A stretch of DNA of 64,000 nt from an uncultured Thermoleophilia bacterium. GTDB taxonomy: Bacteria > Actinomycetota > Thermoleophilia > Gaiellales > Gaiellaceae. Below are positions 23,982 to 54,002 of the stretch, piece by piece (within the stretch, counting starts at the first letter, position 1; each line of letters opens with the position of its first letter). Under the pieces are notes generated by a model. That model saw only the letters and a list, made by a program, of their open reading frames with translations. It ran no database searches and was not told where the DNA came from. The DNA lies in contig CAVZFN010000002.1 of NCBI GenBank assembly GCA_963774605.1, forward strand, positions 300,398 to 364,397, read 5' to 3'. The translations under genes were made by a program, and so were the position numbers.

Positions 23982-24901
23982 CTAAACGAATGCGCCTCCA
24001 ACATTGAGAGATCGCGTTAGCCCGTCCGGCGCAAACGCGCGACGGGGCAACCCGCGGGCGGCGCGCCATCCGTCGCCGCGACCGCGGATGCCCGTCGCAT
24101 TACGATCGACGACGACTTGGCCGAGCGCGATCACAACCTCGACAAAGAGAGCACGGCTCGCCAACCGCGGGTGCCGCAGAATCCCATACCGACGCAGCAT
24201 GTAGCCTCGACTCCAGCCCATCAGAAGGTTTTTCGCGCTCGAACCCGAGCCGAGGGTGGATGAGTGATGATGGATTGCGCGCGCGTCCGGGGCAAGTCGA
24301 CAGGGAACACCCGCGAGGCGAAGCCGAAGGGCGAGGTCGACATCCTCCAAGTAGGCAAAGATCCGCTCATCGAAGCCTTCGGCGGCCTCGAAGACACTCC
24401 GGTCGAACAATGCCGCCCCGCCGGTCGGCCCAAGCGGCGGCGGTGCGCCGAAGAGCACAATCGACACACTCTCCATGGAGGTAGTCCCAAGCGAGCAGCG
24501 TCCTGGTCCGCAGCAACGCCGGCCGAGTCGATCAACTCAGGAGCGCCGGGCTGAAGAAGAACGCCGGCGACCATCGCGGGCTCGGATCCTGTTGCTTCGA
24601 GCATGGCCTCGAGGAAGCGGGGCTCGCAGACGACATCGTTGTTCACGAACACCAGGCGCTCCGCGGGGTGCGCTCGCACGCCGACACTGAGCGCCGCGCC
24701 GAAACCCCGATTTAGTTCGAGCCGGACCACGACCACGTCGGGATGGCGCGCCTTCGCAGCCTGCTCCGAGCCGTCCGTCGAGGCGTTATCAACGACGACC
24801 ACTTGTGCCGGTGTAGTTTGAGCCGCCAACGAGTCGAGGACGTCAAGCAGTCGTTCGCCCCCGTTCCAATTGGGGATGTAGACGGCCAACGGATTGATCA
24901 T
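23982..24901 (-). pseudogene. Family 2 glycosyltransferase, 2 closely spaced frameshifts near 24480-24500
   Basis: ORF 24221..24901: MINPLAVYIPNWNGGERLLDVLDSLAAQTTPAQVVVVDNASTDGS..NRGFG..FVNNDV.. A third frame reads TLLAWDYLHGE. ORF 23982..24476 then gives SVSIVLFGAPPPLGPTGGAALFDRSVFEAAEGFDERIFAYLEDVDLALRLRLAG. Confidence 0.82.
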
Positions 24902-38739: not shown

Positions 38740-39651
38740 GCGCAACGCCCGCCACCGCGGGCGAGCCGCTGCGGATCGAGCGGGCGCAATTTCTCGAGGA
38801 GCTCAAGAACGCTCTCGAGAACGGCCGCGGCTACGCCGCCGGGAAGATCGGCAACACGGAGCGTGCCGTCCTGCTGTATCCGTTCGTCCGCGAGCGGTTT
38901 CAGGCTCCGCTGCAGATCCGGGCTTACGAGCTCACGCTCGCCAATCACGTCTTGCGCCACAGCGGCGTCTTCCCGACTGACGATGAGTTCCTCGGGCGCT
39001 TCAGCCGAGACTATGCGCAGGCGGTGACCCATCTCGACTGCGTCGGGCTGTGGCCGGACCGGCTCGCGGAGGACATCGAACTGGTCGCTCGCCACGGCTT
39101 TCGTGGTCACGCGATCCCGTTCACCGACCAGGAGCCCGACCGTTCGTTCCCGTCGGACGACAGCCGCTGCTACCTGCCGTTCCTCCGTGGGCGTCACGTG
39201 CTGATCGTGTGCCCCTTCGCCGGTCTTCTGCGCGAACGGGCGACGCGGGAGACGTTCGAGGCCGTCTGGAGCAAGACCGGGAAGCCCTGGTTCGAGCCGG
39301 CGAGCGTGCAGGCGCTCGAGCTCCCGTACGGCTACTCCCCGTCCACCTGGGATCGCTATCCGACCGCGCTCGACCTCTTCGCCGAGGTCCGAGGACAGAT
39401 GGACGCGCTGGACTACGACGCCGCCCTGATCGGGGCAGGGCTCCTCGGGCAGCATGCTCGCGGTGGCGGCCAAGGAACGTGGCAGAGTCGCGATCTCGCT
39501 CGGCGGGCACCTGCAGATCCTCTTCGGGGTGAACGGCCCGCGCTGGCGCGACCGGGTCAACTGGCGCCGGAAGTACTTCAACGAGGCGTGGATCGAACTA
39601 CCGGAGAGCTCCAAACCGGGAGCCGGCGAGAGCGACGAGAACTACTGGTAG
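38736..39651 (+). CDS. Hypothetical protein, possibly a GT-D/DUF1792-like transferase; apparent frameshift near 39450
   Basis: ATGA overlap at 38736. ..GYAAGKIGNTERAVLLYPF.. ..VLIVCPFAGLL.. ..YDAALIGAGLLG. It then continues in ORF 39454..39651: MLAVAAKERGRVAISLGGHLQILFGV..NYW*. The family assignment is weak. Confidence 0.5.
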
Positions 39652-40860
39652 CCGGTCGCGCACGACTCGCAGAGCACCGGCCGGCCCGAGTGCAGGCTGA
39701 CCACGAGCCGACCGCACTCGGTCGCACGCAACGACCCGGTTCGGCGCGATCCGCTTCGCGCTCTGCGCGAGCGCCACCTGCGCGGTCTTGCGGGCGAGGC
39801 GCACTGCGAGCTGTCCTCGCGTTCGCACCCCGAAGTGCTCCTGCAGAAACTCGGTCGGGCGAACCGAGCGGTCGATGCGCGACCGTCGGACGTAGTCGTC
39901 GAGGATCACCGGCAGCCAGTTCCCGCCGCCCATCGGCTGCAGCGCGGCTCTGGAGGCCCATCGCTCGAGCAGGCCCTTCGGTGCGGCCGCCAGCCGCTCG
40001 AGGACACCGTCCGGCAGCGGAAACTCGACTGCGCCGACGAGGCATTCGAGCGCAGCCGCGAGCGTGGCTGTCACGCCCCGGCGCGTCGCCTCGGCGACGA
40101 GGCGATCCCAGTCGAGATCGGTCCCTGCCGACCGCTCGATGACAACCGCGTCGGCCAGCCAACGCACGGGTGGCACGGGGTTCCAGCGCGCGCCGTGCAC
40201 CGCGACGTGGAGCAGCTGGTCGGCGGGGCAAAGGACGCGCGTCGGCACGTTCAAGAGCTCGATCTCGACGGCGGCCGACCAGAACTCGTCATCGGACGCA
40301 GCCTGGGCGAGCGCGTAGCGGTGCAAGTCGAGAGAGACGCCGCCCTCGCGGTGCTGGAGATGCTCCGCGTGCACCGCCCTGAGCCCACCGGTCGGGATGT
40401 AATCGCGCCCGGCAGCCCAACCCGCACCCCTCAGCACCGTGATCGCACGCTCGAAGTCGCGCCGGGGCACCAGCACGTCGATGTCCTCCATCGGCCGCAC
40501 ACCGTCGTCGCGGTAGTGCGCGATGCTGAGGGCAATTCCCTTGAGCACCAACGTCGGGACTCCCGCGTCGCCGAGCGCACCGAGCGCCTCGGCGGCCCGC
40601 TTGAAGAGCAGCTGGTTGTGGACCCACGCACCTCGGTAAGCGCCCTTGAGCTTGGCGAGATCCAACTCGTCCAACCCCGCCGAACGCAGGTTGCTGTAGA
40701 CGAGTGGGAACAGGCGGAGCGATGCCGAGTCCGCGGTCTCCAGAGCATTGCCGGCCCGCCAACGCTCCCAGGCTGTGCGCGCGGTATCCGCGTCGAGCAG
40801 CGCCGCGCGCAGCAGCAGAATCTGGTCCTCGGTGGGCCAGCAGCCGCCAGGCACCAACAT
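39598..40860 (-). CDS. NTP_transf_5-type (PF14907-like) nucleotidyltransferase-family protein
   Basis: ATG at 40860 (MLVPGGCWPTEDQILLLRAALLD..). Hallmark segment VPTLVLKGIALSIAHYRDDGVRPMEDIDVLVPRRDFERAITVLRGAGW. The 5' 560 nt of the longer track ORF is antisense to the PqqD gene and is discarded. Confidence 0.78.
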   Translation of the reverse strand: MLVPGGCWPTEDQILLLRAALLDADTARTAWERWRAGNALETADSASLRLFPLVYSNLRSAGLDELDLAKLKGAYRGAWVHNQLLFKRAAEALGALGDAGVPTLVLKGIALSIAHYRDDGVRPMEDIDVLVPRRDFERAITVLRGAGWAAGRDYIPTGGLRAVHAEHLQHREGGVSLDLHRYALAQAASDDEFWSAAVEIELLNVPTRVLCPADQLLHVAVHGARWNPVPPVRWLADAVVIERSAGTDLDWDRLVAEATRRGVTATLAAALECLVGAVEFPLPDGVLERLAAAPKGLLERWASRAALQPMGGGNWLPVILDDYVRRSRIDRSVRPTEFLQEHFGVRTRGQLAVRLARKTAQVALAQSAKRIAPNRVVACDRVRSARGQPALGPAGALRVVRDRLPVVLVALAGSRFGALR

Positions 40861-40938
40861 GCGGGCGACCCTACCGTCGCGAGCCACAACGTTGCGGTAT
40901 AAGTTTTCGGCCCGCCCCAGGTCGAGGAGGAGCGCATT

Positions 40939-41394
40939 TTGACGGACGCCCGGTTCAAGGTGAACAGCCCACCGGTGATTCATCAGACACTCGACGGCGA
41001 GGTGATCGTCGTCAATCTCGACACAGGGACCTACTACAGCTTCGACGGGGTGGCCGCCGAGATCTGGGCCGCAGCCGAGCGAGGTCTGACGGTCGCGGAG
41101 GTGGTGTCGGAGGCCGCCGAGCTGCACGGCGCATCCAGCACTGCCGCATCGCCCGCCGTCACCCGCTTCCTCGCAGAACTCGCGCGTGAAGAGCTGATCG
41201 TCAGCGTCAACGGCTCCGAGCCGTTCACCGCCCCTGACACCGTCGACGGCGCGTCCCACGAGAGCTTCCCCGAGCCGCTGCTCAACAAGTACACGGACAT
41301 GCAGGAGCTGCTGCTGCTCGATCCGATTCACGACGTCGACGAGCGCGGCTGGCCCAACGCCGCCGCGGCCGGCCAAGACACGACCGGCTCCTAA
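40939..41394 (+). CDS. PqqD-family (RiPP recognition element-like) protein with a ~60-aa acidic C-terminal extension
   Basis: TTG at 40939, with GAGGAGGAG 10-18 nt upstream. ..VIHQTLDGEVIVVNLDTGTYYSFDGVAAEIWAAAERGLTVAEVVSEAAELHG..VTRFLAELAREELI is the PqqD fold pattern. The extension is ..FPEPLLNKYTDMQELLLLDPIHDVDERGWP... Confidence 0.78.
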   Translation: MTDARFKVNSPPVIHQTLDGEVIVVNLDTGTYYSFDGVAAEIWAAAERGLTVAEVVSEAAELHGASSTAASPAVTRFLAELAREELIVSVNGSEPFTAPDTVDGASHESFPEPLLNKYTDMQELLLLDPIHDVDERGWPNAAAAGQDTTGS

Positions 41395-41401
41395 CCTCGG
41401 C

Positions 41402-42049
41402 ATGGACGTCAGCGTCGTCATTCCGGTCCGGAACGGCGAGCATTTCCTGGCGGAGGCGATCGAGAGCGTGCTCGGGCAATCGAGCCCGCCCCTCGAGGTG
41501 ATCGTGGTGGACGACGGCTCGTCCGACTCGACGTCCGAGGTCGCGCAGGCATTCGGTGCGCGCGTGCGTTATGTCTCGCAGCCGCCGCTCGGCGTAGCAG
41601 CCGCCCTCAACTGCGGGATCGGCCTCGCGCGCGGAGAACTGCTCGCGTTCCTCGACGCGGACGACGTCTGGCGGCACGACAAGCTCGAGCTGCAGCTCGC
41701 GGCGTTTCGCGCCGACCCCGGGCTGGACGCCGTGTTCGGCCACCTCACGAACGTCGGCGAAGCAGGGGATTCTCGCGAGACCTTCGCGGGCTGGAGCAGT
41801 GGCACGATGCTGATCCGCGCGGAAGCGTTTGCGCGCGTCGGGCCATTCAGGAATTGGCGTCTCGGCGAGTTCATCGAGTGGTACGCACGCCTCGTCGACC
41901 TCGGCCTCCTGCTCCTCATGCTGCCGGAGGTCGTGCTCCTTCGACGCGTGCACGACGCGAACATGGGCGTCCAGCGCCGTCACGAGCGGAGCGAGTACGC
42001 CCGGGTCCTCAAGGCCGTCCTCGACCGGCGCCGAGCGGAACACCTGTGA
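41402..42049 (+). CDS. Short family 2 glycosyltransferase (intact)
   Basis: Track ORF of 215 aa: MDVSVVIPVRNGEHFLAEAIESVLGQSSPPLEVIVVDDGSSDST..LAFLDADDVWRHDKLE.. Confidence 0.85.
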   Translation: MDVSVVIPVRNGEHFLAEAIESVLGQSSPPLEVIVVDDGSSDSTSEVAQAFGARVRYVSQPPLGVAAALNCGIGLARGELLAFLDADDVWRHDKLELQLAAFRADPGLDAVFGHLTNVGEAGDSRETFAGWSSGTMLIRAEAFARVGPFRNWRLGEFIEWYARLVDLGLLLLMLPEVVLLRRVHDANMGVQRRHERSEYARVLKAVLDRRRAEHL

Positions 42050-43747
42050 TGCGTTCGCTCCGCCCCTTCTTGCCCTTCCTTCGTGGCTCACAGCGGCGGT
42101 TGCTTCTGAGCCTCGTGGCCGCGCTCGTACAAGCCGGCCTGCTCGTCGTGATCGGCCTCCTCGTCCGCCGTGCCTTCGACCAGAACATTCCCGACAACGA
42201 CGTCGGAGCTCTCGCTCTCACGGGTGCCGCGATCCTCGGTGTGGCGCTCGCCGCCGCCGGTCTCACCGTCTGGATGCGCTATCTCGTCCTGGGCGCCGTC
42301 AAGGATGCGATCAGCCGCCTGCGGGTCGCGCTCCTCGAGAAGCTGAATGCGCTCCCGACAGCGTGGTTCGATCGCGCCGACGGCGGCAGCCTCCACGCAA
42401 CGATCGTGCAGGACAGCGAGCGTCTCGATGTCGTCGCCAACAGCGTCGCCGCCCAGGCTGCGCCGGCCCTGGTGATCGGCTTCGGGCTCAGCCTCGCCCT
42501 GCTCGTCATCAATCCGCTGCTGTTCGGGATCCTCGCGCTTTCCCTGCCGGTGCTCGCTGTTCTGACGCGGCGATTCGACGGTGTCGTCAGGCGGCGCACG
42601 CGTACCTGGCAGCTCAGCTTCGACCGCTTCTCGACCCGCGTCCTCTTTGCCATTCTCGCGCGTCCGCTGATCGTGACCCAGGCCGCCGAGGAGATCGAAC
42701 TGGAGGAAGGTCGTACAGAGGCGGTCGCACTCAGCGACGCGGGCCGTTCGATGGCGTGGCTGCACAGCGTGTATGCGCAGCTCCACGGCGCGGTCGCGAC
42801 TTTCGCCGGCGTGATCGTGCTGGTCGTCGGCGGCGCTTCAGTCGCTCGAGGGACGATGTCGATCGGCTCGCTGGTCGCCTTCTACACGCTCCTCGCGCTG
42901 TTGCGGGCGCAGGGCAACGCCGTTCTGACGACGATCCCGCAGGTCATCTCCGGCCGAGAATCGCTGGCGCGGCTCGCGGCGATCCTCGATGCGCCCGACC
43001 GGCACCCCTACCACGGGAGCCGAACACCGTCGCTGCATCACTCACTCGCCTTGCGGAACGTGGACTTCGGGTACACCGACGGCACGCCTGTTCTGCAGCG
43101 GCCTGAGCTTCGAACTCGAGCGCGGTGAGTGGCTCACTCTCGTCGGCCCGAACGGATCCGGCAAAACGACGGTCGCGGCGCTCCTGCTCGGCCTGTACCG
43201 GCCCTGGCGAGGAAGCGTCGCCGCCGACGGCGTCCCGTATGACGAACTGGACCTGCAGGCCTTGCGACGCCGGATCGGCTTCGTGCCGCAGCGGCCGATC
43301 CTCTTCCCGGCCAGCATCGCCGAGAACATCGCCTACGGAACAGGCACGGTCGACGCCGCCCGGGTGCATGAGGCCGCCGAACTCGCGACGGTCGACGAGT
43401 TCGTCGACGGCCTGGACCACGGCTATCGGACTCCTGTCGGCGACGGGGGCGACCTCCTGTCCGGCGGTGAGCGGCAGCGCATCGCGATCGCGCGCGCACT
43501 CCTCCGAGAGCCCGCCGTCCTCGTTCTGGACGAGCCGACGAGCAGCCTCGACCGGCACGCGATGGCACAGGTGCTCTCGAACCTACGCGCGCTCGCTCAC
43601 GAGCCCGCCGTGCTCGTCATCACCCACGACCAGGCGTTGATCGACAGTGCCGAGCGCGTCGTCGAGCTCGGCGGCGACGCGAGCGGCTGGCGCTCCGAAG
43701 GGGCCGGTGCCTTCCGCCCCGTCGGAGGCGCCGAACCTACGGCGTAA
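42049..43747 (+). CDS. Fused TMD-NBD ABC exporter (MsbA/McjD-like), apparent frameshift near 43095
   Basis: ATG at 42049 forms a TGATG overlap. The six-helix TMD lies in ORF 41854..43128. The NBD lies in ORF 42989..43747: [38 protein letters not shown]. Confidence 0.85.
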
Positions 43748-44014: not shown

Positions 44015-44527
44015 CTACTCGGGGAAGTTCTCTGGGTGGAAGGCATACGCCCACATCGATGTCGGCTCGATCCTCATGAAGACGACGCCGTCGCCCCAGT
44101 CGAACGGGCTCGAGCCGTAGATGTCCCTCCACACCGGCTCAATGTCGGCGACGCCTTCGTCCTCGTGACCGATGATCGTTGCATGCCCGTGAACGACGAT
44201 GCCGACGGTGTCGCCGTCCACATGGGCGGCGCTGCACGCGGGCTTCGCACGTAGATGACGGAGGCGTGCGGCGCGCCCGCCGGTCGAGACCGTGAACCTG
44301 CCATGGATGAAGACTCCGTCGAGCGGCGCCACGCGCGGCTCGCCGCGCTCGTTTACGGTCGCGAACGCAACGTGCTTCGTGCCCTGCAGGTACCGCGAGA
44401 CCTGCCTCGCATTCAGGCGTCGCTCTTCCTTGACGATCGTCAGGAGATGGGGGTTCGCGCGGGCGTAGGTTCGCGCAAAGAGGTCGTCCAGCTCTCGGAG
44501 CTCATCGTCGGATTCGAACATCGCCAT
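44015..44527 (-). CDS. Pyridoxamine 5'-phosphate oxidase-fold (PPOX / F420-dependent-like) family protein
   Basis: Track ORF of 170 aa: ..KHVAFATVNERGEPRVAPLDGVFIHGRFTVSTG.. is the typical split-barrel pattern. Confidence 0.7.
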   Translation of the reverse strand: MAMFESDDELRELDDLFARTYARANPHLLTIVKEERRLNARQVSRYLQGTKHVAFATVNERGEPRVAPLDGVFIHGRFTVSTGGRAARLRHLRAKPACSAAHVDGDTVGIVVHGHATIIGHEDEGVADIEPVWRDIYGSSPFDWGDGVVFMRIEPTSMWAYAFHPENFPE

Positions 44528-44670: not shown

Positions 44671-46739
44671 ATGCGGGCCGCCGATCTGCGCGCGAGCTCC
44701 GTAGCAAGAGCGAGCGGCCCCACCTCGCCGAGCCCTCACGCGGCTGGGCGCCCCAGGCGGGGCGACATCCAGGGTCTGCGTGCAGTCGCGATTCTCGCCG
44801 TCGTCGCCTTCCATGGCCGGCTCGGCGCGAGCGGCGGCTTCACCGGCGTGGACGTCTTCTTTGCGATCTCCGGGTTCGTCATCACCTCGACGCTGGTGCG
44901 CGAGCTCGAGGCAACCGACCGGATCGCCCTGCCGGCCTTCTACGGCCGACGGGTCAAGCGGCTGTTGCCGGCGCTCGCCGTGGTGATCCTCTTCGTGGCG
45001 GTGGCCGGATCGCTGGCGACCCCGGTGGCGGCGACGCATGTCGCCGGGATGACCGGCTTCTTCGCCTCGTTCTTCGCCGCGAATGCCTATCTCTACTGGC
45101 TTCCGTCCGGCTACTTCAGCCTGACCACCCAGCTCGATCCGCTGTTGCACACGTGGACGCTGGCCGTGGAGGAGCAGTTCTATCTCGTCTTCCCGGCCCT
45201 GCTCTTCGGCGCCTGGTGGTTCGGGATGCGCCGTGGCGGACGGGGCCGTCTGTCGGCAGGCATCGTGATCGCCGCCGTCTGCGTCGAATCCCTGTGGCTC
45301 GCGGACCGCTCCTCACTCATTCCAGGCTTCGGCTTTGCCTACTACGCCTCGCCGGCGCGCGCCTGGGAGTTCGCCGCCGGGTCGCTGATCGCGCTGACCG
45401 CCCCGGTCTGGCACCGACTGCCGCGGTCGGCCGCGCTCGTGTTGGCAGCACTGGGCCTCTCCGGCATCGCCTTCGTCGCCTTCGGCGGCTCGGCGACCTC
45501 CGGCCTGCTCGTGATCGGGATCATCCCGGTCGCCTCGGCCTGCGCCCTGCTCGCGGCCGGCTCAGCGCCGAACCTCGTCTCGAGCGTGCTCGGGCTACGA
45601 CCGCTTGCCTGGATCGGTGACCTCTCCTACAGCTGGTATCTGTGGCACTGGCCGCTGATCGTCTTCGCCGTCGCGCTTGCGCCGGGCCATGGTTCAGCAG
45701 CGCAGATCGCAGCCATCGCCTCGATCGTCCCCGCCTGGCTGTCCTACAGGTTCGTCGAGAACCCGATTCGCTTCAGCCCACGGATCCACGGCCGGCGCCT
45801 GGTTCAGTTGGCCGCTGCCTGCATCGCGATTCCAGCGCTCGTCTCCATCACGGCCGCGCAGCTGCCACTGACCCGGGTCCCGGCCTACGAGGCCGCCCAA
45901 CACGCGGATCTGCTCCGCGGCTGCGACACCGACGCCCTCTACTCCGCACCGTCCCGCGCCCCCTGCACCTGGCCGGTGCGAAATCCTCGCGGCGACGTGG
46001 TGCTGATCGGCGACTCGAACGCCGGCCACTTCACCGAGCCCTTCGTGAAAGCGGCGAACGAGGCAGGCTTCTCAGCGACAGTCGCGGCCCCGTCCGGCTG
46101 CCCCTTCACCCAGCTCGACATCTCAAAAGCGACGTACGACTACGCGCCGTGCGTTCGCTTCAACCACGACGCGCTCCGCGAGCTCGAACGGCTCCGACCG
46201 AGCTTGCTGGTGATTTCGAGTCGCACCGATCTCTATCTCCGCGACGGGGCGTTCGGCTTCGGTCGGACCGACCGCACACTGAGCACCGACACGGGCGTGA
46301 AGCAGCGGCTCTGGGCGGCCGATCTCGCCGCTGAGATCACCGCCGTGAACGGCGCGGGGGTGCCGGTCGTGCTCCTGCACCCAGTGCCCTATCTGCCAAC
46401 CTCCGGCGGAGGGTGTGCCGTCGTCCGTGTCCTCGCCGATCGATGCGGCGGCGGCATCTCACGCCGGGAGGTCGACCAACAGCTGGCCGGCGCGACCGCA
46501 GTCGAACGAGAGGCAGTCCGCGGAACGCAGGCGTGGATCGTAAACTTCGAGGAGCAGCTCTGCCCGAATGGCCGCTGCTCGGGCAGCCACCAGTATCTCT
46601 ATCGGAACAGGATCACCTCAGCGTGGCCGGCGCGCTGACCCTTACCGGCCGGTTCGCCTCGGCTGTGATCTCCCATGCGCGCCAACCGGCGCCTGCGCAC
46701 CTCCCAGCGACTAGTTCACTCGTCACAGCGCTGCATTAG
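44671..46739 (+). CDS. OafA/YrhL-type acyltransferase (Acyl_transf_3 membrane domain + SGNH domain), frameshift near 46603
   Basis: ..IQGLRAVAILAVVAFH..GVDVFFAISGFVIT..YGRRVKRLLPAL..HTWTLAVEEQFYLVFP... The SGNH part is ..VVLIGDSNAGH... The last ~45 aa continue in ORF 46413..46739: EQDHLSVAGALTLTGRF.. Confidence 0.85.
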
Positions 46740-46806
46740 TCCAACCAGGCCCTTGGCCCGGGCGTGGCGTCGACCTTCGCCACGCCCGGGCCTCCGGGCA
46801 ACGTCC

Positions 46807-48157
46807 CTAGATCAGATGGGTCACCGTCCCGGCGATCGTGACGATCACGTCGCAGGGCTTAGGCTCGCACGGCTTCGGCGGGCACGGTGGCTTCTGCTCG
46901 TTGCACGGCTTCGGCTCGGGCTTCGGGCACGGCGCCGGCTCGGGCTTGGGGCACGGCTTCGGCTCGGGCTTCGGGCACGGCTTCGGCTCGGGCTTCGGGC
47001 ACGGCTTCGGCTCGGGCTTCGGGCACGGCTTCGGCTCGGGCTTGACGCACGGCTTCGGCTTCGAGCCCTTCGGCTCCCACTTCGAGCCCCGCTCGTCCTG
47101 GCCGGAGCTCTGCTGGTTGACCTGCGTCAGGTTCGTGTTCGCCGACGAGTTCTGGTCGCCGGTATTGACGAGCGCGACGCTGTTCCCCGACGCAACCGGG
47201 ATGTTCGACAGAACGGCCGTGTTCGACTGGCCGCCATCGTCCGATTTCCGGCCTTTCTTCCAGTCCCCGCCCTGCTTGTCCTGGCCGGAGCTCTGGTTGA
47301 CCTGCGTCAGGTTCGTGTTCGCCGACGAGTTCTGGTCGCCCGTGTTGATCACGGCGACGCTGTTCCCCGAGGCAACCGGGATGTTCGACAGGACGGCCGT
47401 ATTCGACTGGCCGCCACCGTCCGACTTCCCGTCCTTCTTCCCGCCCTGACACCGGCAGTCTTTGCCGTCCCAGCCAGGCTGGCCGTTGCCGGAGCTCTGG
47501 TTGGTCTGTGACAGGTTCGTGTCGGCAGACGAGGTCTGGTCGCCGGTATTGACGACCGCCACGCTGTTCCCCGACGCGATCGGGATATTCGACAGAACGG
47601 CCGTGTTCGACTGGCCGCCGTCGCTCGAGCCACCGTTGCCGGAGCTCTGGTTGGTCTGCGACAGGTTCGTGTCGGCCGACGAGGTCTGACCCCCGCCATC
47701 CTTCGCGTCGCAGCCGCAGCCCTTCTGGCCGCCGTTGATCACGGCGACGCTGTTCCCGGACGCAACCGGGATGTTCGACAGGACGGCCGTGTTCGACTGA
47801 CTCGAATCCGAGCCGTCTCCGCCACTCGGGCCGTTCGGTGCCGAGTCGGTCGTCGGCTGCTGCGTCGGCTGACCATCGCCGTACGAGCCGCCTTCCTTCC
47901 CGACCGGCTGGCGCCTGGTTGACCTGCGACAGGTTGGTGTTCGCGGACGAGTTCTGGTCGCCCGTATTGATCACCGCGACGCTGTTCCCCGACGCAACCG
48001 GGATGTTCGACAGGATCGCCGTGTTCGATTGGCCCTGGTCGCCCCCGGTGGGCTGGATCGGGTTCGGTGGCTGCGGCGTTCCTGCGAACGCCGGGCCGGC
48101 GGCGAGCGCCAACATCAGCGCGCAGACGCTTGCCGCGAGTACGAAGTACCGCTTCAT
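46807..48157 (-). CDS. Secreted repeat protein: 5 chaplin/curlin-like ~42-aa repeats plus a (KPEPKPCP)n Cys/Pro/Lys-rich tail; one frameshift near 47910
   Basis: ATG at 48157 gives MKRYFVLAASVCALMLALAAGPAFA (signal peptide). Five copies of GQSNTAVLSNIPVASGNSVAVINTGDQNSSANTNLTQVNQSSG follow. Linkers carry CGC and CRC. The tail is KPCVKPEPKPCPKPEPKPCP...PPCPPKPCEPKPCDVIV. The N-terminus is in ORF 46859..48157 and the rest in ORF 46807..47742. Confidence 0.8.
46904..47068. repeat. 24-bp tandem repeat, ~6.5 copies (unit cacggcttcggctcgggcttcggg), coding for the PKPEPKPC repeats
   Basis: Copies occupy 46904-27, 46928-51, 46952-75, 46976-99, 47000-23 and 47024-47, plus a partial copy. Three copies are identical. 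Confidence 0.9.
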
Positions 48158-48228
48158 GATTCCTTCCTTTCATCGCTTGAGCATTCGCACCAGGCAAGTC
48201 GCCCGGTGCAACGGGACGCAGGACGCGT

Positions 48229-49481
48229 CTAGCCGGGGTGCTCGAGCGGTGAAACGGCCGGCGGCATCACGAGGAGGTCGATCACAGGCCGTAGACGACG
48301 GCCCACCCTCGGATGTCCCAGCAGAAGGAAAGAGAGGAGCGCGGCGATCACCGCTGCGCCAAGAACTGCGGAGGCGGCCGGCGCACCCGCTGCCAGGCCG
48401 TACGGCGCCTGTGGCGTACTGGGCAGGCCCGGCAGGTGCGGCACGGACAGTTCCGGCCGACGCGGACGTGTGCGCTGCCCGCGCGGGCTGCGCTGTCGTC
48501 GAAATCGAGGAGGCGGCCAGCGGCTGAGCGTTCGGTGCCGGCTGCGCAGCCGAGGTTGTCGTCGCAGCGCCTGCGTACCAGCCGGTGCTGCGCGGCCGGC
48601 TGCTCGAGCCCGGCGTAGTCGACCGAGACCGGCGCGGCCGTCACGTTCCGAGGCGCAGTCGGGGTCGTCTGCAGATCGTCGGCGGTGGTCGATGCCGGCG
48701 ACACCGTCGACTGCTCGGGCGCCGACACACCGGCGTCCTGCTGGGGCGAGGCGACCACGGTTCCGACCGGCGCGTGGGAGCTCGACGAACCTGAGGGAGA
48801 GCTCGGGCCGGAGGGTGTCTTGGCGACGACGGTCGGTGTCGCTACAACCTGAGTCACCGGCGCCGCGGCCGTCGTTACGAGATTCGAAGCGGCGGTGGTC
48901 GCGGTGGCCGCGACTTCCGGCACCACGGCGGCAACGGTTGCCACGGTCGTATTCACCGCGGTGGTGACCGAGCCGGCCACCGGGGTCACGACACCTGCCA
49001 CGGTCGTGTTCACCACGGGGGCCACCGAGGCGACCACCGGGGCTGCGACGCCGGCCACGGTCGTCGCTGCGGCGGCGACCGAGGCGGTCGTGGGGGCTAC
49101 CGCACCGGTCACCGTCGACAAGGTCGTTCCCGCAGCGGTGGCCGTCGCGGCCACAGTTGTCACCGGCGCCGCGACATCCGCGACGACCGGAGGCGCGACC
49201 GCGGACACCACACCGGTGACCGAAGCGGCCCCGGCTGTGGGGGCCGGCGTCGTCGGAGTTGTCGAGGCGGCGACGACGCCAGTCACGCTGGTCGTCGTTG
49301 CCGTGACTCCAGCCGCGGCGCTCGTCACGGTCGTCGTTGCGGCTGTCACACCGCCCAGGAGATCGCCGGCGAACGCGGTCCCAGGCGAACCCAGGAATGC
49401 CGAGGCAATGACCGCCAACGCGATGGCTCCCCGCCGAGCAATGTGCGATGTGCCGCAGAGCACGAAGTCCGAGTACCCCAT
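48229..49481 (-). CDS. Secreted Thr/Ala/Val-rich low-complexity protein; the 3' end is probably frame-shifted into a C-terminal membrane-anchor/sorting-like segment
   Basis: ORF 48348..49481: signal-like RRGAIALAVIASAFLGSPGTAFA, then ~230 aa of TAV-rich sequence (VTSAAAGVTATTTSVTGVVAAS..VAPVVNTTVAGVVTPVAGSV..). After ..VSVDYAGLEQ the frame turns Arg/Cys-rich. ORF 48229..48444 encodes LPSTPQAPYGLAAGAPAASAVLGAAVIAALLSFLLLGHPRVGRRLR. Confidence 0.6.
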
Positions 49482-49528
49482 TCGAGGGATTCCAATCCTG
49501 CCGGCGAGCGGCCCGCGATCAGCCCGGG

Positions 49529-50041
49529 TCAGCCGCCGTTTTGAAGCGCTTTGGCGAGCGCAGCCAGGGTGAGCGGGCCGGCGACTCCGTCGGCGGCGAG
49601 CTTCGACGCGGTCTGGAAGTGCATGACGGCCGCTTCGGTGAGCGGCCCGAAGTCACCGTCGACCGCTCCCGGCGGGTAGCCGAGGTGTGCGAGCGCGCGC
49701 TGGAGCTGCTTCACCTGCGTGCCCTGGCTCCCTGCCTTCAGCTTCGCCGTCGGAACGGGCAGCGTCGACGGCTTGGCAGCCGGCTTTGACGGAGTCGTCG
49801 TCGTCACCCGGCTCGGGGCCGTCGTCGTTGTCGGCGTGGACGCCGTTGTGGGCGGGCTGGTCGGGTGGTCCTTGCCGCCCGAGAAGACTCCGCCCGCAAC
49901 GAGCCCGGCCACGATCAGCAGCAAGACGACGGCGGCCCCGGCGATGATCACCGTGCGCGAACCGATGGCTCGGCCCGCGAAGAAGCCGTCGCTGCCGGCA
50001 GCCTCACCTCGGTCGGCGTCGCCCTCCTTACTCGTTTCCAC
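49529..50041 (-). CDS. Single-pass membrane protein with a Ser/Thr/Pro linker and a C-terminal peptidoglycan-binding (PG_binding_1) domain
   Basis: Track ORF of 170 aa. TM segment TVIIAGAAVVLLLIVAGLVAGGVF. Linker TSPPTTASTPTTTTAPSRVTTTTPSKP. PG-binding domain GSQGTQVKQLQRALAHLGYPPGAVDGDFGPLTEAAVMHFQ. Confidence 0.75.
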   Translation of the reverse strand: METSKEGDADRGEAAGSDGFFAGRAIGSRTVIIAGAAVVLLLIVAGLVAGGVFSGGKDHPTSPPTTASTPTTTTAPSRVTTTTPSKPAAKPSTLPVPTAKLKAGSQGTQVKQLQRALAHLGYPPGAVDGDFGPLTEAAVMHFQTASKLAADGVAGPLTLAALAKALQNGG

Positions 50042-50234: not shown

Positions 50235-53200
50235 GTGAGCCTCTGCTCGAGTTGCGGCACCGAGAACGAGCCGAACCGCAAGTTCTGCGGCGAATGCGGC
50301 ACGCCGCTCACGCACGTCTGTGCCAGCTGCGGTGCGACGAACGCGCCGACGGCGAAGTTCTGCGGCGAGTGCGGCTCCGCGCTCGTGGCGGGTCTGGCGC
50401 CGGGCACCGACAGCCCGGTGGTGCAAGCCCCGGCCTCCGAGCGCCGCCTCGTCTCCGTCCTGTTCGCCGATCTCGTCGGCTTCACGGCGCTTTCGGCGAC
50501 GCGCGACTCCGAGGAGGTGCGGGAGCTCCTGACCCGCTACTTCGAGACGTGCAGCCGGTTGATCGAGCTCTACGGCGGGACGGTCGAGAAGTTCATCGGC
50601 GACGCGGTGATGGCCGTCTGGGGCACGCCGACCGCCACCGAGGACGACGCGGAGCGCGCGGTGCGCGCCGCGCTCGACCTCGTCGCGGCCGTCTCGGCGC
50701 TGGGCGACGAGGTCGGCGCACCCGAGCTGCGCGCGCGTGCCGGCGTCCTCACCGGCGAGGCGGCGGTGACGCTTGGGCGCAGAGCGCCAGGGGATGGTCG
50801 CCGGCGATCTCGTCAACACGGCGTCGCGGGTGCAGTCGGTCGCGGATCCGGGCGCGGTGTTCGTGGGCGCGTCGACGCGCCGGGCAACCGAGCAGACGGT
50901 CGTCTACGAGGAGGCGGGGGCGTTCGAGCTGAAGGGCAAGGACGGGCTGCTGCCGCTCTGGCGGGCGCTGCGGGTCGTCTCGGGCGCGCGCGGCTCGCTC
51001 AAGTCGACCGGCCTGGAGGCGCCCTTCGTCGGCCGCGACCGGGAACTGCGCCAGATCAAGGACCTCTTCCACACCTGTGCCGAGGAGCGCAAGGCGCATC
51101 TGATCTCGGTGACCGGGATCGCCGGCATCGGCAAGTCGCGGCTCGGCTGGGAGTTCTACAAGTACTTCGACGGCCTGCCGCAGCTCACGTACTGGCACCG
51201 CGGGCGCTGTCTCGCCTACGGCGACGGCGTGACCTACTGGGCGCTCGCAGACATGGTGCGGATGCGGTGCCGGATCGTCGAAGACGAGGAGCCGGCCACT
51301 GCGCTCGAGAAGCTGCGGGCGACACTCGAGGAGCACATCCCCGATCCCGAGGAGCGGCGGTTCGTCGAGCCGCGGGTCGCGCAGCTGCTCGGGCTGGTCG
51401 AGCAGGAGGCGCGCGACAAGCAGGAGCTGTTCGCTGCCTGGCGGCTCTTCTTCGAGCGGCTCGCAGACGTCTACCCCACCGTGCTCGCGTTCGAGGACAT
51501 GCAGTGGGCGGACGCGAGCCTGCTCGACTTCGTCGAGTACCTGCTCGAATGGTCGCGCAACTCGCCGCTGTACGTGATCACGCTGGCCCGCCCGGAGCTG
51601 CTCGAGCGCCGGACGAACTGGGGTGCCGGCCAGCGCAACTTCAGCTCGCTCTACCTCGAGCCGCTCTCGGCCGCGCGCGATGGAGGAGCTCCTGGTCGGG
51701 CTCGTGCCCGGTCTGCCGGCCGCGCTGCGCGAGCAGATCCTCGCGCGCGCCGAAGGGGTGCCGCTGTACGCGGTCGAGACGGTGCGGATGCTGCTCGACC
51801 GCGGTCTCCTCGTGCAGGAGGGCGCGGTCTACCAGCCGGTCGGCGAGATCGGCTCGCTCGAGGTGCCCGAGACCCTGCACGCGCTGATCGCCGCCCGGCT
51901 CGACGGCCTGTCGGCCGAGGAACGGCGGCTGCTGCAGGACGCGGCCGTGCTCGGCAAGACGTTCACCCGAGACGCACTGGCTGCGCTCGCCGGCGCCGAG
52001 AGCCGAGGTCGAGCCCCTGCTCGCGTTCCTCGTGCGCAAGGAGGTGCTCGGCGTGCAGGCCGATCCGCGCTCGCCGGAGCGCGGCCAGTACGGCTTCCTG
52101 CAGGATCTCGTCAGGCACGTCGCCTACGAGACGCTTGCCAAGCGCGAGCGCCGGGCGAAGCATCTGGCTGCGGCCGAGTACCTGAGCACGGCGTTCGCCG
52201 CCGAGGAGGACGAGGTCGTCGAGGTGATCGCGTCGCACTACCTGGCCGCCCACGAGGCTGCCCCGGACGCGGACGATGCCGCCGGAGATCAAGGAGAAAG
52301 CTCGTGCGACGCTGGCGCGCGCCGGGCAGCGTGCCGCGTCACTGGCCGCGGCCGCCGAGGCGAGGCGCTACTTCACGCAGGCCGCGGAGCTGGCTGCCGA
52401 CCCATCGGAACGAGCGGCGCTGCTCGGACAGGCGGGCGAGATGGCGCGCAGAGCCGCCGATCCCGACGCGGCGCGCGCGTTGCTCGCGGAGTCGATCGAG
52501 CTCTACGAGCAGCAGGGCGACACGCACGCGGCCGCCCGAGGGCTCGCCCGGCTCGGAGATCTCGACGCGTTCACCGGGCCAGCGCGACAAGGCGCTGGTC
52601 AGGATGGAGCGGGCTTTCTGCCGTCATCTCGGGAGACGAGCCCGACGAGGATCTCGCGCTGCTCGCGGCGCGGCTGTCTCGCGCGTACTGGTTCAGCGGA
52701 GATCTCGAGCGTGCGGCCGAGCGGGCCGAGTTCGCTCTCGACATCGCCGAGTCCCATGCCTACCCCCTCGCCCTCACCATGGCGCTGCGCAGCAAGGCGG
52801 CGGTCGTCTTCAGCCGGGGCCACCCCGCAGGAGGCGAACGCGCTCCTCAGGCAAGCTCTGCAGATCGCGGTCGACAACGATCTCGCTGAGGACGCGGCCG
52901 TCGTGTTACTTCCTGCTCTCCGACGGACGCTTCCGGTCGGACGAGTACGCGGAGGCGCTCGGCTACCTCGACGAGGTGCTCGCCCTCTCCCGCAAGCTGG
53001 GTGACCGGCCGACGGAGTGGGCGGCGTTGTCCGAACGCGCCTACGCGCTCTTCATGCTCGGCCGCTGGGACGAGGCGCGAGCAAGCAGCGAGGAGTTCAC
53101 ACCCGAACAGATCGTCGCCGGCGGTGTGATGTTGAGCCTGCTCCAGGTGGGCGTCGAGATCCACGTGCAGCGGGGCGAGCTCGACGACGCGCGCCGGGTC

Positions 53201-53732
53201 TTCGCGATGTACCAGCACCTCGAGGAGTCATCCGACGTGCAGGATCGGGCGGCGTACCTGGGATCGCGGGCCTGCCTGCGCCGGGCGGAGGGCGGGCTGC
53301 GGGAGGCGCTCGCCGACGGCGAGGCGACCATCGAGACCAGCCCGACTCTCGGCGTCTCGTTCCAGGGGGTGAAGCAGGGCATCGTCGAAGCGCTCGAAGC
53401 GGCCTTCGCGTTGGGCGAGACGGCGAAGATGGAGGAGCTGCTGGCCTTCATCGAGTCGATTCCGCCGGGCTCGCGGGCGCCCTTCCTCGACGCCCAGGCG
53501 CGGCGTTTCCGCGCCCGCCTCGCTGGTGGAGACCGGTCAGGCTACGAGGCCGCCGTTCGGCGGTTCCGCGAGGCTCGGGCTGCCGTTCTGGGTCGCGGTC
53601 ACGCTGCTCGAGCACGGCGAAGCCGCAGGCCTCGCCGAGGCGCGCGAGATCTTCGAGCGGCTCGAGGCTGCACCCTGGCTGGAGCGAGTCGCGGCGGCCG
53701 AGGCCGAGCAGCACGCACAAGTTCCCGCCTGA
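50235..53732 (+). pseudogene. Double zinc-ribbon + class III cyclase + AAA/P-loop ATPase + TPR regulator, about 9 frameshifts
   Basis: Pieces in three + frames: MSLCSSCGTENEPNRKFCGECGTPL..CASCGATNAPTAKFCGECG..VSVLFADLVGFTAL..FIGDAVMAVWG | GMVAGDLVNTASR..FVGRDRELRQI..VTGIAGIGKSRL..AFEDMQWAD | MEELLVGLVPGLP..EGVPLYAVE | EVEPLLAFLVRKEVL..GQYGFLQDLVRHVAYE | EIKEKARATLA.. and so on, ending ..GLPFWVAVTLLEHGEAAGLAEAREIFERLEAAPWLERV..*. Shifts lie near 50778, 51670, 52000, 52280, 52580, 52615, 52825, 52895 and 53575. Confidence 0.85.
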
Positions 53733-53735
53733 CCT

Positions 53736-54002
53736 CTACAACGCTCGTCGTCCGGTGACGAACATGACCGCGAGCTCGGTACGCGAGCGGACGTTCAGCT
53801 TGCGGTAGATCCTCGTCAGATTCCATTCGACCGTCTTCGGCCGCATGCGGAGCCGCTCGGCGATCTCCTGATTCGTGCGGCCCTCGGCGACCTCCGCCAC
53901 AATCAGGCGTTCGGTCTGCGTCAGCTCGCTCACGCCGCCGCACACTACGGCGTTGTGTCCGGGGGTACCCCCGGGTTTCACGCGTGCCCTCAGCCCGGAC
54001 AA
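53736..54002 (-). CDS. Stand-alone LuxR/GerE-type HTH protein (65-88 aa; start uncertain)
   Basis: LTQTERLIVAEVAEGRTNQEIAERLRMRPKTVEWNLTRIYRKLNVRSRTELAV. Possible starts are the ATG at 54002 or the GTG at 53933. Confidence 0.65.
   Translation of the reverse strand: MSGLRARVKPGGTPGHNAVVCGGVSELTQTERLIVAEVAEGRTNQEIAERLRMRPKTVEWNLTRIYRKLNVRSRTELAVMFVTGRRAL

Follow-up and report, generated by a model that had tools for sequence, protein, structure and literature searches.

What do three closely spaced coding regions on the minus strand of an uncultured soil bacterium encode, and which of them belong together? The question is raised by positions 46807-50041 of a 64,000-nucleotide stretch of Thermoleophilia DNA (GenBank assembly GCA_963774605.1, contig CAVZFN010000002.1, positions 300,398 to 364,397 of the forward strand), which was analysed as a whole and is called the window here. 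Thermoleophilia are abundant in soil and almost entirely uncultured, and to our knowledge the nature of their cell surfaces is essentially unknown. A sequence-only reading had described the locus as a three-gene operon for a fibre-like surface assembly, with a repeat protein recalling curlins and chaplins (gene 3), a protein rich in Thr, Ala and Val (gene 2) and a peptidoglycan-binding anchor (gene 1). On the sequence evidence presented below, genes 2 and 3 instead form a conserved two-gene cassette of soil Thermoleophilia. We believe that it may build a structural assembly at the cell surface, and we assign this reading a probability of about 40%.

Gene order in related genomes separates the three coding regions. 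The comparison covered 12 loci, L001-L007 and L010-L014, of which L011-L014 are four more divergent loci fetched via the proteins P0013, P0019, P0021 and P0024. In 12/12 loci the C-terminal module of gene 2 (Table 1) occurs once and lies directly before gene 3; tblastn found it nowhere else in these loci or in the window, and all other flanking genes vary between loci. Conservation marks gene 2, and not gene 1, as the true partner of gene 3, an obligate one that is newly recognised here. Gene 1 itself had been described correctly as a single-pass membrane protein: it matches PG_binding_1 (PF01471) at 73.1 bits against a cut-off of 23 (E = 2e-20; residues 106-162, the full 57-position profile), and the domain is preceded by a hydrophobic helix. 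The operon with a peptidoglycan-binding anchor did not withstand the comparison. In L001-L007, a tblastn search with the window proteins found no homologue of gene 1 within 8 kb; in L011-L014, the genes called around gene 3 include none listed with a PG_binding domain. Gene 1 accompanies the gene 2/gene 3 pair only in the window and in L010, which is 94% identical to it. Gene 1 is a lineage-specific neighbour outside the conserved module, and as a conserved wall anchor it was rejected. The expected synteny of three genes is thus found in every locus examined for genes 2 and 3, and is lost for gene 1.

Gene 2 is a more structured protein than had been described. Its Thr/Ala/Val-rich low complexity behind a signal peptide is present in the three-frame translation, as claimed, and what had been overlooked is that the protein ends in a transmembrane helix and a conserved 27-residue tail. 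Intact orthologues are found in L002 (6672-7928), L010 (642-1826), L011, L012 and L014. The common N-terminus reads (M/V)-(L/A)-C-G and is followed by a signal peptide ending in A-x-A before G, and the ectodomain comprises 250-350 residues of Ala/Thr/Val/Pro(/Gln) low complexity. After it come a PQ(A/S)PxG..AAG motif, the transmembrane helix, a basic cluster and the conserved end ..RRLRLAIDLLVxPPxxxPLE(H/R)PG, directly before the stop codon. In divergent species the ectodomain consists of tidy repeats of about 11 residues (APVTQAVANTV, TQPVxQ, ATAPVAQT; L011 2787-3914, L012 2925-3914, L014 1128-2336), and the ectodomain encoded in the window appears to be a degenerate version of these tandem repeats. 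The ectodomain lacks Cys, so any disulfides of the gene 3 tail would form between gene 3 chains, and none to gene 2. Although a motif, a helix and a basic cluster are all present, we rejected gene 2 as a sortase substrate: the motif is PQ(A/S)PxG, the LPSTP of the window is not kept (LPRAP, LPSAP and LAPSAP in relatives), and the protein continues for 18 conserved residues beyond the basic cluster. A search of genes 2 and 3 for a sortase signal (LPXTG/LAXTG) gave no NCBIfam sorting-domain match at E <= 1.

The start of gene 2 is either the ATG at 49481 or the conserved GTG at 49463. The latter opens a 14-mer, GTGCTCTGCGGCAC, which is nearly identical in 8/8 aligned loci, synonymous positions included, between divergent flanks; L003 has ATG and ..CAT, and the window holds a single exact copy. 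The 14-mer might mark a genuine GTG start whose N-terminal residues are constrained, or it might have a regulatory function. About 35 nucleotides 5′ of the 14-mer there is a GGxTTxxAA element, which is only loosely conserved. The encoded VLCG was considered as a lipobox and rejected, as the -1 residue is wrong and no hydrophobic region precedes it.

Gene 2 is written in Ala/Thr/Val-rich, high-GC DNA. Such DNA yields long open reading frames (ORFs) of similar appearance on both strands, for example at 48895-49572 on the plus strand of the window. GC content at third codon positions does not distinguish the sense strand from the antisense frame whose third positions coincide with its own, and a count of stop codons per frame is circular for the sense frame. 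We accept gene 2 as a gene because its signal peptide, transmembrane helix, tail and stop position are conserved in 12 loci. It is called in L010-L012 and L014. In the long-read metagenome-assembled genome (MAG) L009 (2647-4001), gene callers missed it and called a 114-residue antisense ORF instead, and in L013 (2657-3949) it was mis-framed as an Arg-rich wrong frame. A protein-database search with the C-terminus of gene 2 gave no match, and a likely cause is that the gene was missed or mis-framed in several source assemblies. A practical lesson is that gene 2 can escape gene callers, or be read in the wrong frame by them, in long-read MAGs.

The copies in the window look broken, and this raises the question of whether the locus is alive. 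Gene 1 (170 residues) is the single clean ORF among the three coding regions; the spans of gene 2 (1253 nucleotides) and gene 3 (1351 nucleotides) are not divisible by 3. DNA alignment to the relatives located three single-base insertions in the window, at ~47913, ~48448 and ~48571. At the first of these the window reads CAGGCGCCAGCC where L001, L002 and L010 read CAGG-GCCAGCC. In three-frame translation, gene 3 opens in one frame (MKRYF...NLSQVNQ) and continues from there in another, with QPVGKEGGSYG..., four further repeats and the stop at 46807; as ORFs it is split into 46859-48157, which holds the N-terminal part and then runs out of frame, and the frame 46807-47970. Gene 2 uses all three frames, switching at ~48571 and ~48448. 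The sequence-only reading had presented both as intact genes, having joined the frames silently across the shifts; the proteins that it gave are nevertheless correct conceptual translations. The gaps that it reported are borne out, namely 71 nucleotides between genes 2 and 3 (stop 48229 to ATG 48157) and, provided that gene 2 starts at ATG 49481, 47 nucleotides between genes 1 and 2 (stop 49529 to ATG 49481).

The closest relative found, L010, is a 3.6-kb Illumina/SPAdes contig with 94% DNA identity, and it carries genes 1, 2 and 3 in the same order, all intact. The plus-strand neighbour at 50235-53758 (guanylate cyclase, AAA_16, TPR) lies in at least six frame segments compared with an intact orthologue in L001, and a family-2 glycosyltransferase (GT2) gene at 23982-24901 on the minus strand is likewise split into two overlapping frames, so the indels affect the window as a whole and not this locus specifically. 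Single-base indels are indeed abundant across the whole window. Because the genes are intact in L010 and a neighbouring gene is also split, indels introduced in assembly are the likeliest origin of the frameshifts. The related genomes belong to the Microflora Danica MAGs, which come from a Nanopore survey (PMC12313526). Programmed frameshifting was ruled out by the lack of slippery sites, the intact closest relative and the spread of indels across the window. The pair might still be a decaying pseudogene pair without current function, its three frameshifts being real mutations: three independent single-base insertions fall within 2.6 kb, and none of them coincides with a long homopolymer, where Nanopore errors classically arise. 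We consider this very unlikely, given that the adjacent cyclase/ATPase gene has at least five frame switches and the GT2 gene is split as well, that the sequence outside the indels is 94% identical to the intact copy and free of stop codons or deletions, and that frame errors recur in other long-read copies (the tail of P0004, P0015 and gene 2 of L013). The practical consequence is that the window copies look broken only through single-base indels.

With the frames repaired, gene 3 can be compared with its relatives. Intact homologues include P0001 (90% identity, 100% coverage), P0002 and P0003, and the N-terminus is kept in all full-length homologues aligned. The ATG is closely preceded by a strong Shine-Dalgarno sequence, AAAGGAAGGA, at 48161-48170. 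The five repeat units that had been reported are confirmed as five imperfect cores (Tandem Repeats Finder period 180, score 581), separated by Gly/Ser/Asp/Lys linkers, and the CGC and CRC motifs are both present, the first within a G-C-G-C that is inserted into the turn of repeat 2 and the second in the linker joining repeats 3 and 4. The tail, described as carrying about ten regularly spaced Cys, has 87 residues (37% Pro, 29% Lys+Glu, 10 Cys), and its DNA forms a 24-nucleotide repeat of 6.6 copies with 93% matches. Endings related to the hydrophobic C-terminal peptide (..G.VT.TV.HLI, ..GGLLGGLI) occur in most full-length members. Long antisense ORFs run over gene 3 on the plus strand, at 46838-47449 and 46675-47511 (GFGSGFGHGFGSGFGHG..., RLGLRARLRLGL...); they arise from the periodicity of the tail and the repeats and are not genes. 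The coordinates of all features are collected in Table 1.

Table 1. Features of the locus, in window coordinates
Feature	Coordinates	Strand	Description
Gene 1	49529-50041	-	N-in single-pass membrane protein with a Thr/Pro linker and a PG_binding_1 domain
Gene 2	48229-49481	-	Signal peptide, ~330 residues of Ala/Thr/Val/Pro-rich low complexity, transmembrane helix, conserved cytoplasmic tail
Invariant 14-mer GTGCTCTGCGGCAC	49450-49463	-	Gene 2 start, codons V/M-L-C-G-T; GTGC-N6-GCAC inverted repeat
Gene 2 C-terminal module	48229-48369	-	..PQAPYGLAAG.. motif, transmembrane helix (AVLGAAVIAALLSFLLL), GHPRVGRRLRPVIDLLVMPPAVSPLEHPG, stop
Gene 3	46807-48157	-	Secreted Asn/Gln/Ser/Gly-rich protein with five repeats, 448 residues after frameshift repair
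Gene 3 Sec-type signal peptide	48080-48157	-	MKRYFVLAASVCALMLALAAGPAFA before G (..AGPAFA, then G); read from sequence
Five imperfect repeat cores	47107-48034	-	48034-47912, 47799-47638, 47616-47488, 47412-47284, 47232-47107
Gene 3 single-base insertion	47912-47914	-	Between repeat 1 and the first linker (between VNQ and GQPVGKEGG)
Pro/Lys/Glu/Cys array	46852-47067	-	KPEPKPCP and related units, 10 Cys
Hydrophobic C-terminal peptide	46807-46851	-	DVIVTIAGTVTHLI and stop codon; conserved

Gene 3 belongs to a genuine, undescribed and very rare protein family of unusual architecture. A word-indexed protein search returned about 25 true homologues, all unnamed, and an exhaustive HMMER search with a profile of the 56-sequence repeat alignment found 38 proteins at E <= 0.001 among 1.84 billion cluster representatives. 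The stronger of these all share one repeat architecture, a few at the weak end are unrelated and match through short motifs, and the 38 include no curlin, no chaplin and no member of another named family. All matches in the genome collection (7/7) are uncultured Thermoleophilia MAGs. Literature searches by taxon and by peptide strings returned nothing relevant to the family, NCBIfam gave nothing credible for gene 3, and the PDB sequence set gave no match to the gene 3 repeat profile, A3. The architecture had been noted as unrecognised, and with Pfam included no credible match to a described family was found. One apparent exception, FliO (PF04347), a small flagellar export protein of the inner membrane, was rejected: its 29.8 bits against a gathering score of 22 are the sum of weak matches over five repeats with no significant single stretch, and TIGR03500 reaches 24.5 against a cut-off of 55.25. 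The spurious FliO label already stands in the precomputed annotations of P0001, P0002 and P0004 and carries a risk of misannotation.

Within the family, the number of repeats is variable and their core is not. Full-length members carry 2-7 repeats, and close relatives at 80-96% identity carry 4, 5 and 6. Inter-repeat spacing ranges from 46 to 98 residues. Family-wide, six positions of the ~42-residue repeat (N11, G23, N24, G34, Q46 and N48) are 100% conserved, and Q9, A13, S22 and A40 are conserved in at least 93%. In three segments of the repeat the conserved columns occupy every other position, and in the segments 9-19 and 34-48 all of them have the same parity. Judged from the alignment, this alternation is the signature expected of β-strands that bury one face, with Asn/Gln bracketing it. 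The repeats are real, conserved and β-strand-like, and AlphaFold places strands, with low confidence, at the same positions.

These features suggest how the assembly might be built. The gene 3 protein would be exported by the Sec pathway, and each ~42-residue repeat would form two or three β-strands with small or hydrophobic residues between flanking Asn/Gln on their conserved face (Q-x-N-x-A-x-L-x-N-x-P ... SGN-x-VA ... N-x-G-x-Q-x-SSA-x-T-x-x-x-Q-x-N). The repeats may pack as β-arcades, within or between chains. The two CxC motifs, one in a repeat turn and one in a linker, could either hold the fold together through disulfides or coordinate a metal. Cys recur every 5-8 residues in the Pro/Lys/Glu tail, which would make a stiff polyproline-type stalk, perhaps laddered covalently to neighbouring chains by analogy with an antibody hinge. 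Gene 2 would be a type I membrane protein whose extended Ala/Thr/Val/Pro ectodomain spans the wall and presents or tethers gene 3, and its conserved cytoplasmic tail may couple to a partner inside the cell.

Several observations weigh against this reading, and structure prediction supplies the first of them. AlphaFold2 gave a mean pLDDT (predicted local distance difference test) of 43.6 for full-length P0001 with 22 homologues and of 38.8 for window repeats 3-5 with 29 rows of three-repeat segments; confidence is low in both. In both runs each repeat has strands at SVAVxNT and in the segment that follows SSA, with no confident tertiary arrangement, and a Foldseek search of PDB with the first model, which reached a best E-value of only 7.2, is uninformative at such low confidence. 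The repeat region is therefore predicted to form strands and not to be disordered, and the β-helix that had been suggested did not appear. Moreover, the inter-repeat linkers are long and variable, unlike those of compact β-solenoids. Isolated hairpins without confident inter-repeat packing, long flexible linkers and a variable number of repeats would also suit a non-polymeric adhesin or spacer, in which independent β-hairpin modules sit on a proline-rich stalk and gene 2 is an unrelated, co-transcribed membrane protein. The tail resembles the Pro/Lys/Glu spacers of TonB, to which it has weak NCBIfam matches (E = 0.09-0.13) that amount to low-complexity noise. We regard such an adhesin as improbable, because the strict conservation of one strand face suggests a buried packing interface rather than exposed hairpins, and because the linkage of genes 2 and 3 in 12/12 loci argues for a functional partnership.

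The cysteines raise a second difficulty for the structural assembly. Most full-length members examined have two CxC motifs, one in a repeat turn and one in a linker, and a few have one or three; a tail with 5-13 Cys is present in most full-length homologues, is absent from the frameshifted P0004 and P0015, and is atypical in P0021. Some members have an odd total of Cys, so a fully paired disulfide scheme is not universal. The divergent members P0066, P0073 and P0057 have a mid-protein His-rich and Cys/Pro-rich block, have CCH motifs in their linkers, or are without the Cys tail, which suggests from their sequences that the Cys/Pro module is mobile within the family. The His-rich inserts and CCH motifs of P0066 (HEHAHTHGHGH and HEPCPPRHEPKPCPP blocks) and P0073 (CHSGPPPCHSGCNPPPP) point to metal binding. 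Together with the conserved CxC motifs, the tail Cys and the odd counts, they are what would be expected of an extracellular protein that chelates Cu, Zn, Ni or Cd through Cys and His, or scavenges oxidants at the cell surface, with the repeats as a scaffold. However, the best-conserved part of the family is the Cys-free repeat core and not the Cys regions, the His-rich inserts are confined to a few divergent members, and no metal transporter or regulator is conserved beside the cassette. A metal-binding or redox-buffering role is accordingly quite unlikely in our view.

The third difficulty concerns the surroundings of the putative surface assembly. No assembly, secretion or sortase genes are conserved near gene 3 in the loci examined, and we infer the role of gene 2 from its adjacency to gene 3 alone. 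A conserved two-gene module with a strong Shine-Dalgarno sequence before gene 3 and no detectable relatives would offer a new entry point to the way in which these actinobacteria build their envelope or attach to particles.

The genomic neighbourhood differs from locus to locus. In the window, the pair adjoins an envelope-polysaccharide region with GT2 genes, the ATPase of an ATP-binding cassette (ABC) transporter, NTP_transf_5 and an AT3-SGNH acyltransferase, and this association is not kept in the other loci. The envelope-glycan run extends over ~23000-46700 and includes at least three GT2 genes, the ABC transporter ATPase at 42929-43744, NTP_transf_5 at 39601-41568 and the AT3-SGNH gene. 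The GC content falls to 0.60-0.64 at 24-32 kb, compared with ~0.70 elsewhere in the window, and the run may be an acquired polysaccharide island. About 2 kb (window 44697-46727) with the AT3 + SGNH acyltransferase gene (44671-46638, plus strand) is missing from L010, where a PNPOx-like gene (window 44015-44527) comes directly after gene 3; either the window lineage gained this segment or L010 lost it. Scans of 46.0-51.0 kb for Rfam families, promoters and terminators detected nothing.

How, then, does the module compare with the known fibre systems? The resemblance of gene 3 to curlins and chaplins fails every formal test. Neither PF07012 (Curlin_rpt) nor PF03777 (Chaplin) matched whole proteins, single repeats or four divergent homologues even at E <= 10. 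The hhalign probability of A3 was 0.2% against CsgA of E. coli K-12 and 0.9% against a CsgA repeat alignment, 0.1% against FapC and 0.4% against a FapC repeat alignment, and 8.8% against a ChpH alignment, the last over nine columns only (VASGNSVAV vs VLSGNVVQV). The ChpH query is 99% identical to a database entry, and its aligned set has 18 sequences; 120 ChpH chaplins were collected, all with PF03777. The FapC query is identical to PDB 9u4u and 9nqd, and although both entries are in the PDB sequence set, the A3 profile did not find FapC there. No csgG, csgE, csgF or csgB occurs in the Pfam lists around gene 3 in L009-L014 or among the ORFs around L001-L007.

These results bear directly on a strict functional amyloid, in which gene 3 would polymerise outside the cell into cross-β fibres like those of CsgA, FapC and the chaplins, with gene 2 as anchor or nucleator. 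The mature repeat region has the composition of an amyloid subunit (S 15.6%, G 15.3%, N 12%, Q 9.9%); imperfect repeats, Asn/Gln at strand ends, variable linkers and a conserved Cys motif reproduce the layout of FapC; a VxSGNxVxV motif is common to gene 3 and ChpH; and low monomer pLDDT would not be unusual for a fibre-forming subunit. On cross-β fibre formation itself, the alternating conservation and the low-confidence AlphaFold strands bear only indirectly. Against this stand the lack of homology just described, the absence of gene 3 repeats from gene 2, unlike the nucleators CsgB and FapB, and the lack of chaperone or secretion partners conserved nearby. We therefore think it unlikely that gene 3 is a strict amyloid; if it were one, it would represent another independent origin of functional amyloid. 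The boldest form of the structural-assembly reading, which we likewise hold to be doubtful, is a fifth independent bacterial functional-fibre system, made of two genes and confined to soil Thermoleophilia. Its repeat subunit, with ladders of Asn/Gln, would polymerise into a cross-β or β-arcade fibre that is stapled by CxC disulfides and bundled covalently through a Cys-Pro-Lys stalk resembling an antibody hinge. A dedicated type I membrane protein would hold the fibre on the cell, and through its conserved cytoplasmic tail it would connect assembly with the cell interior.

The module shares the layout of known fibre subunits and adds an unusual cysteine-proline stalk. FapC, the functional amyloid of Pseudomonas, is like gene 3 in being secreted and rich in Asn/Gln/Gly/Ser/Ala, and in having a few imperfect ~40-residue repeats with an SGN-x7-G-x2-N-like pattern, linkers of variable length and a conserved Cys motif. 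Gene 3 differs from it in having no detectable homology, no fapA-F operon and no outer-membrane FapF channel, in its actinobacterial host, in its long Cys/Pro tail and two CxC motifs in place of a single C-terminal CxxC, and in its partner, a low-complexity membrane protein. The curli proteins CsgA and CsgB follow the same strand-turn-strand logic as gene 3, in that their strands end in Asn/Gln, the turn reads GN-S-(A/V) and the conserved face carries small residues, but their units (S-x5-Q-x-G-x-G-N-x-A-x3-Q in the Curlin_rpt profile) have 19-23 residues and two strands, whereas the unit of gene 3 has ~42 residues, three conserved segments and long linkers. The Streptomyces chaplins, such as ChpH, are also secreted proteins of Actinomycetota and contain the nine-residue motif V-(A/L)-S-G-N-(S/V)-V-(A/Q)-V; in that system short chaplins make up the fibre and long ones are attached to the cell, a division that we count as a likeness to genes 2 and 3. 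Gene 3 lacks the two conserved Cys of the ~40-residue chaplin domain, its LLNPAFGN motif and the LAXTG sortase signal. As far as the sequences can tell, the likeness to curlin, chaplin and FapC is one of composition, layout and one short motif, and not of family membership. The tail has its own parallels. The IgG3 hinge (CPRCPEPKSCDTPPP repeats), the small proline-rich proteins of the cornified envelope (PKVPEPC octapeptides) and TonB spacers consist of short Pro/Lys/Glu repeats with regularly spaced Cys and form rigid polyproline-type rods that are covalently cross-linked from chain to chain. The resemblance of the gene 3 tail to them is an analogy of composition only.

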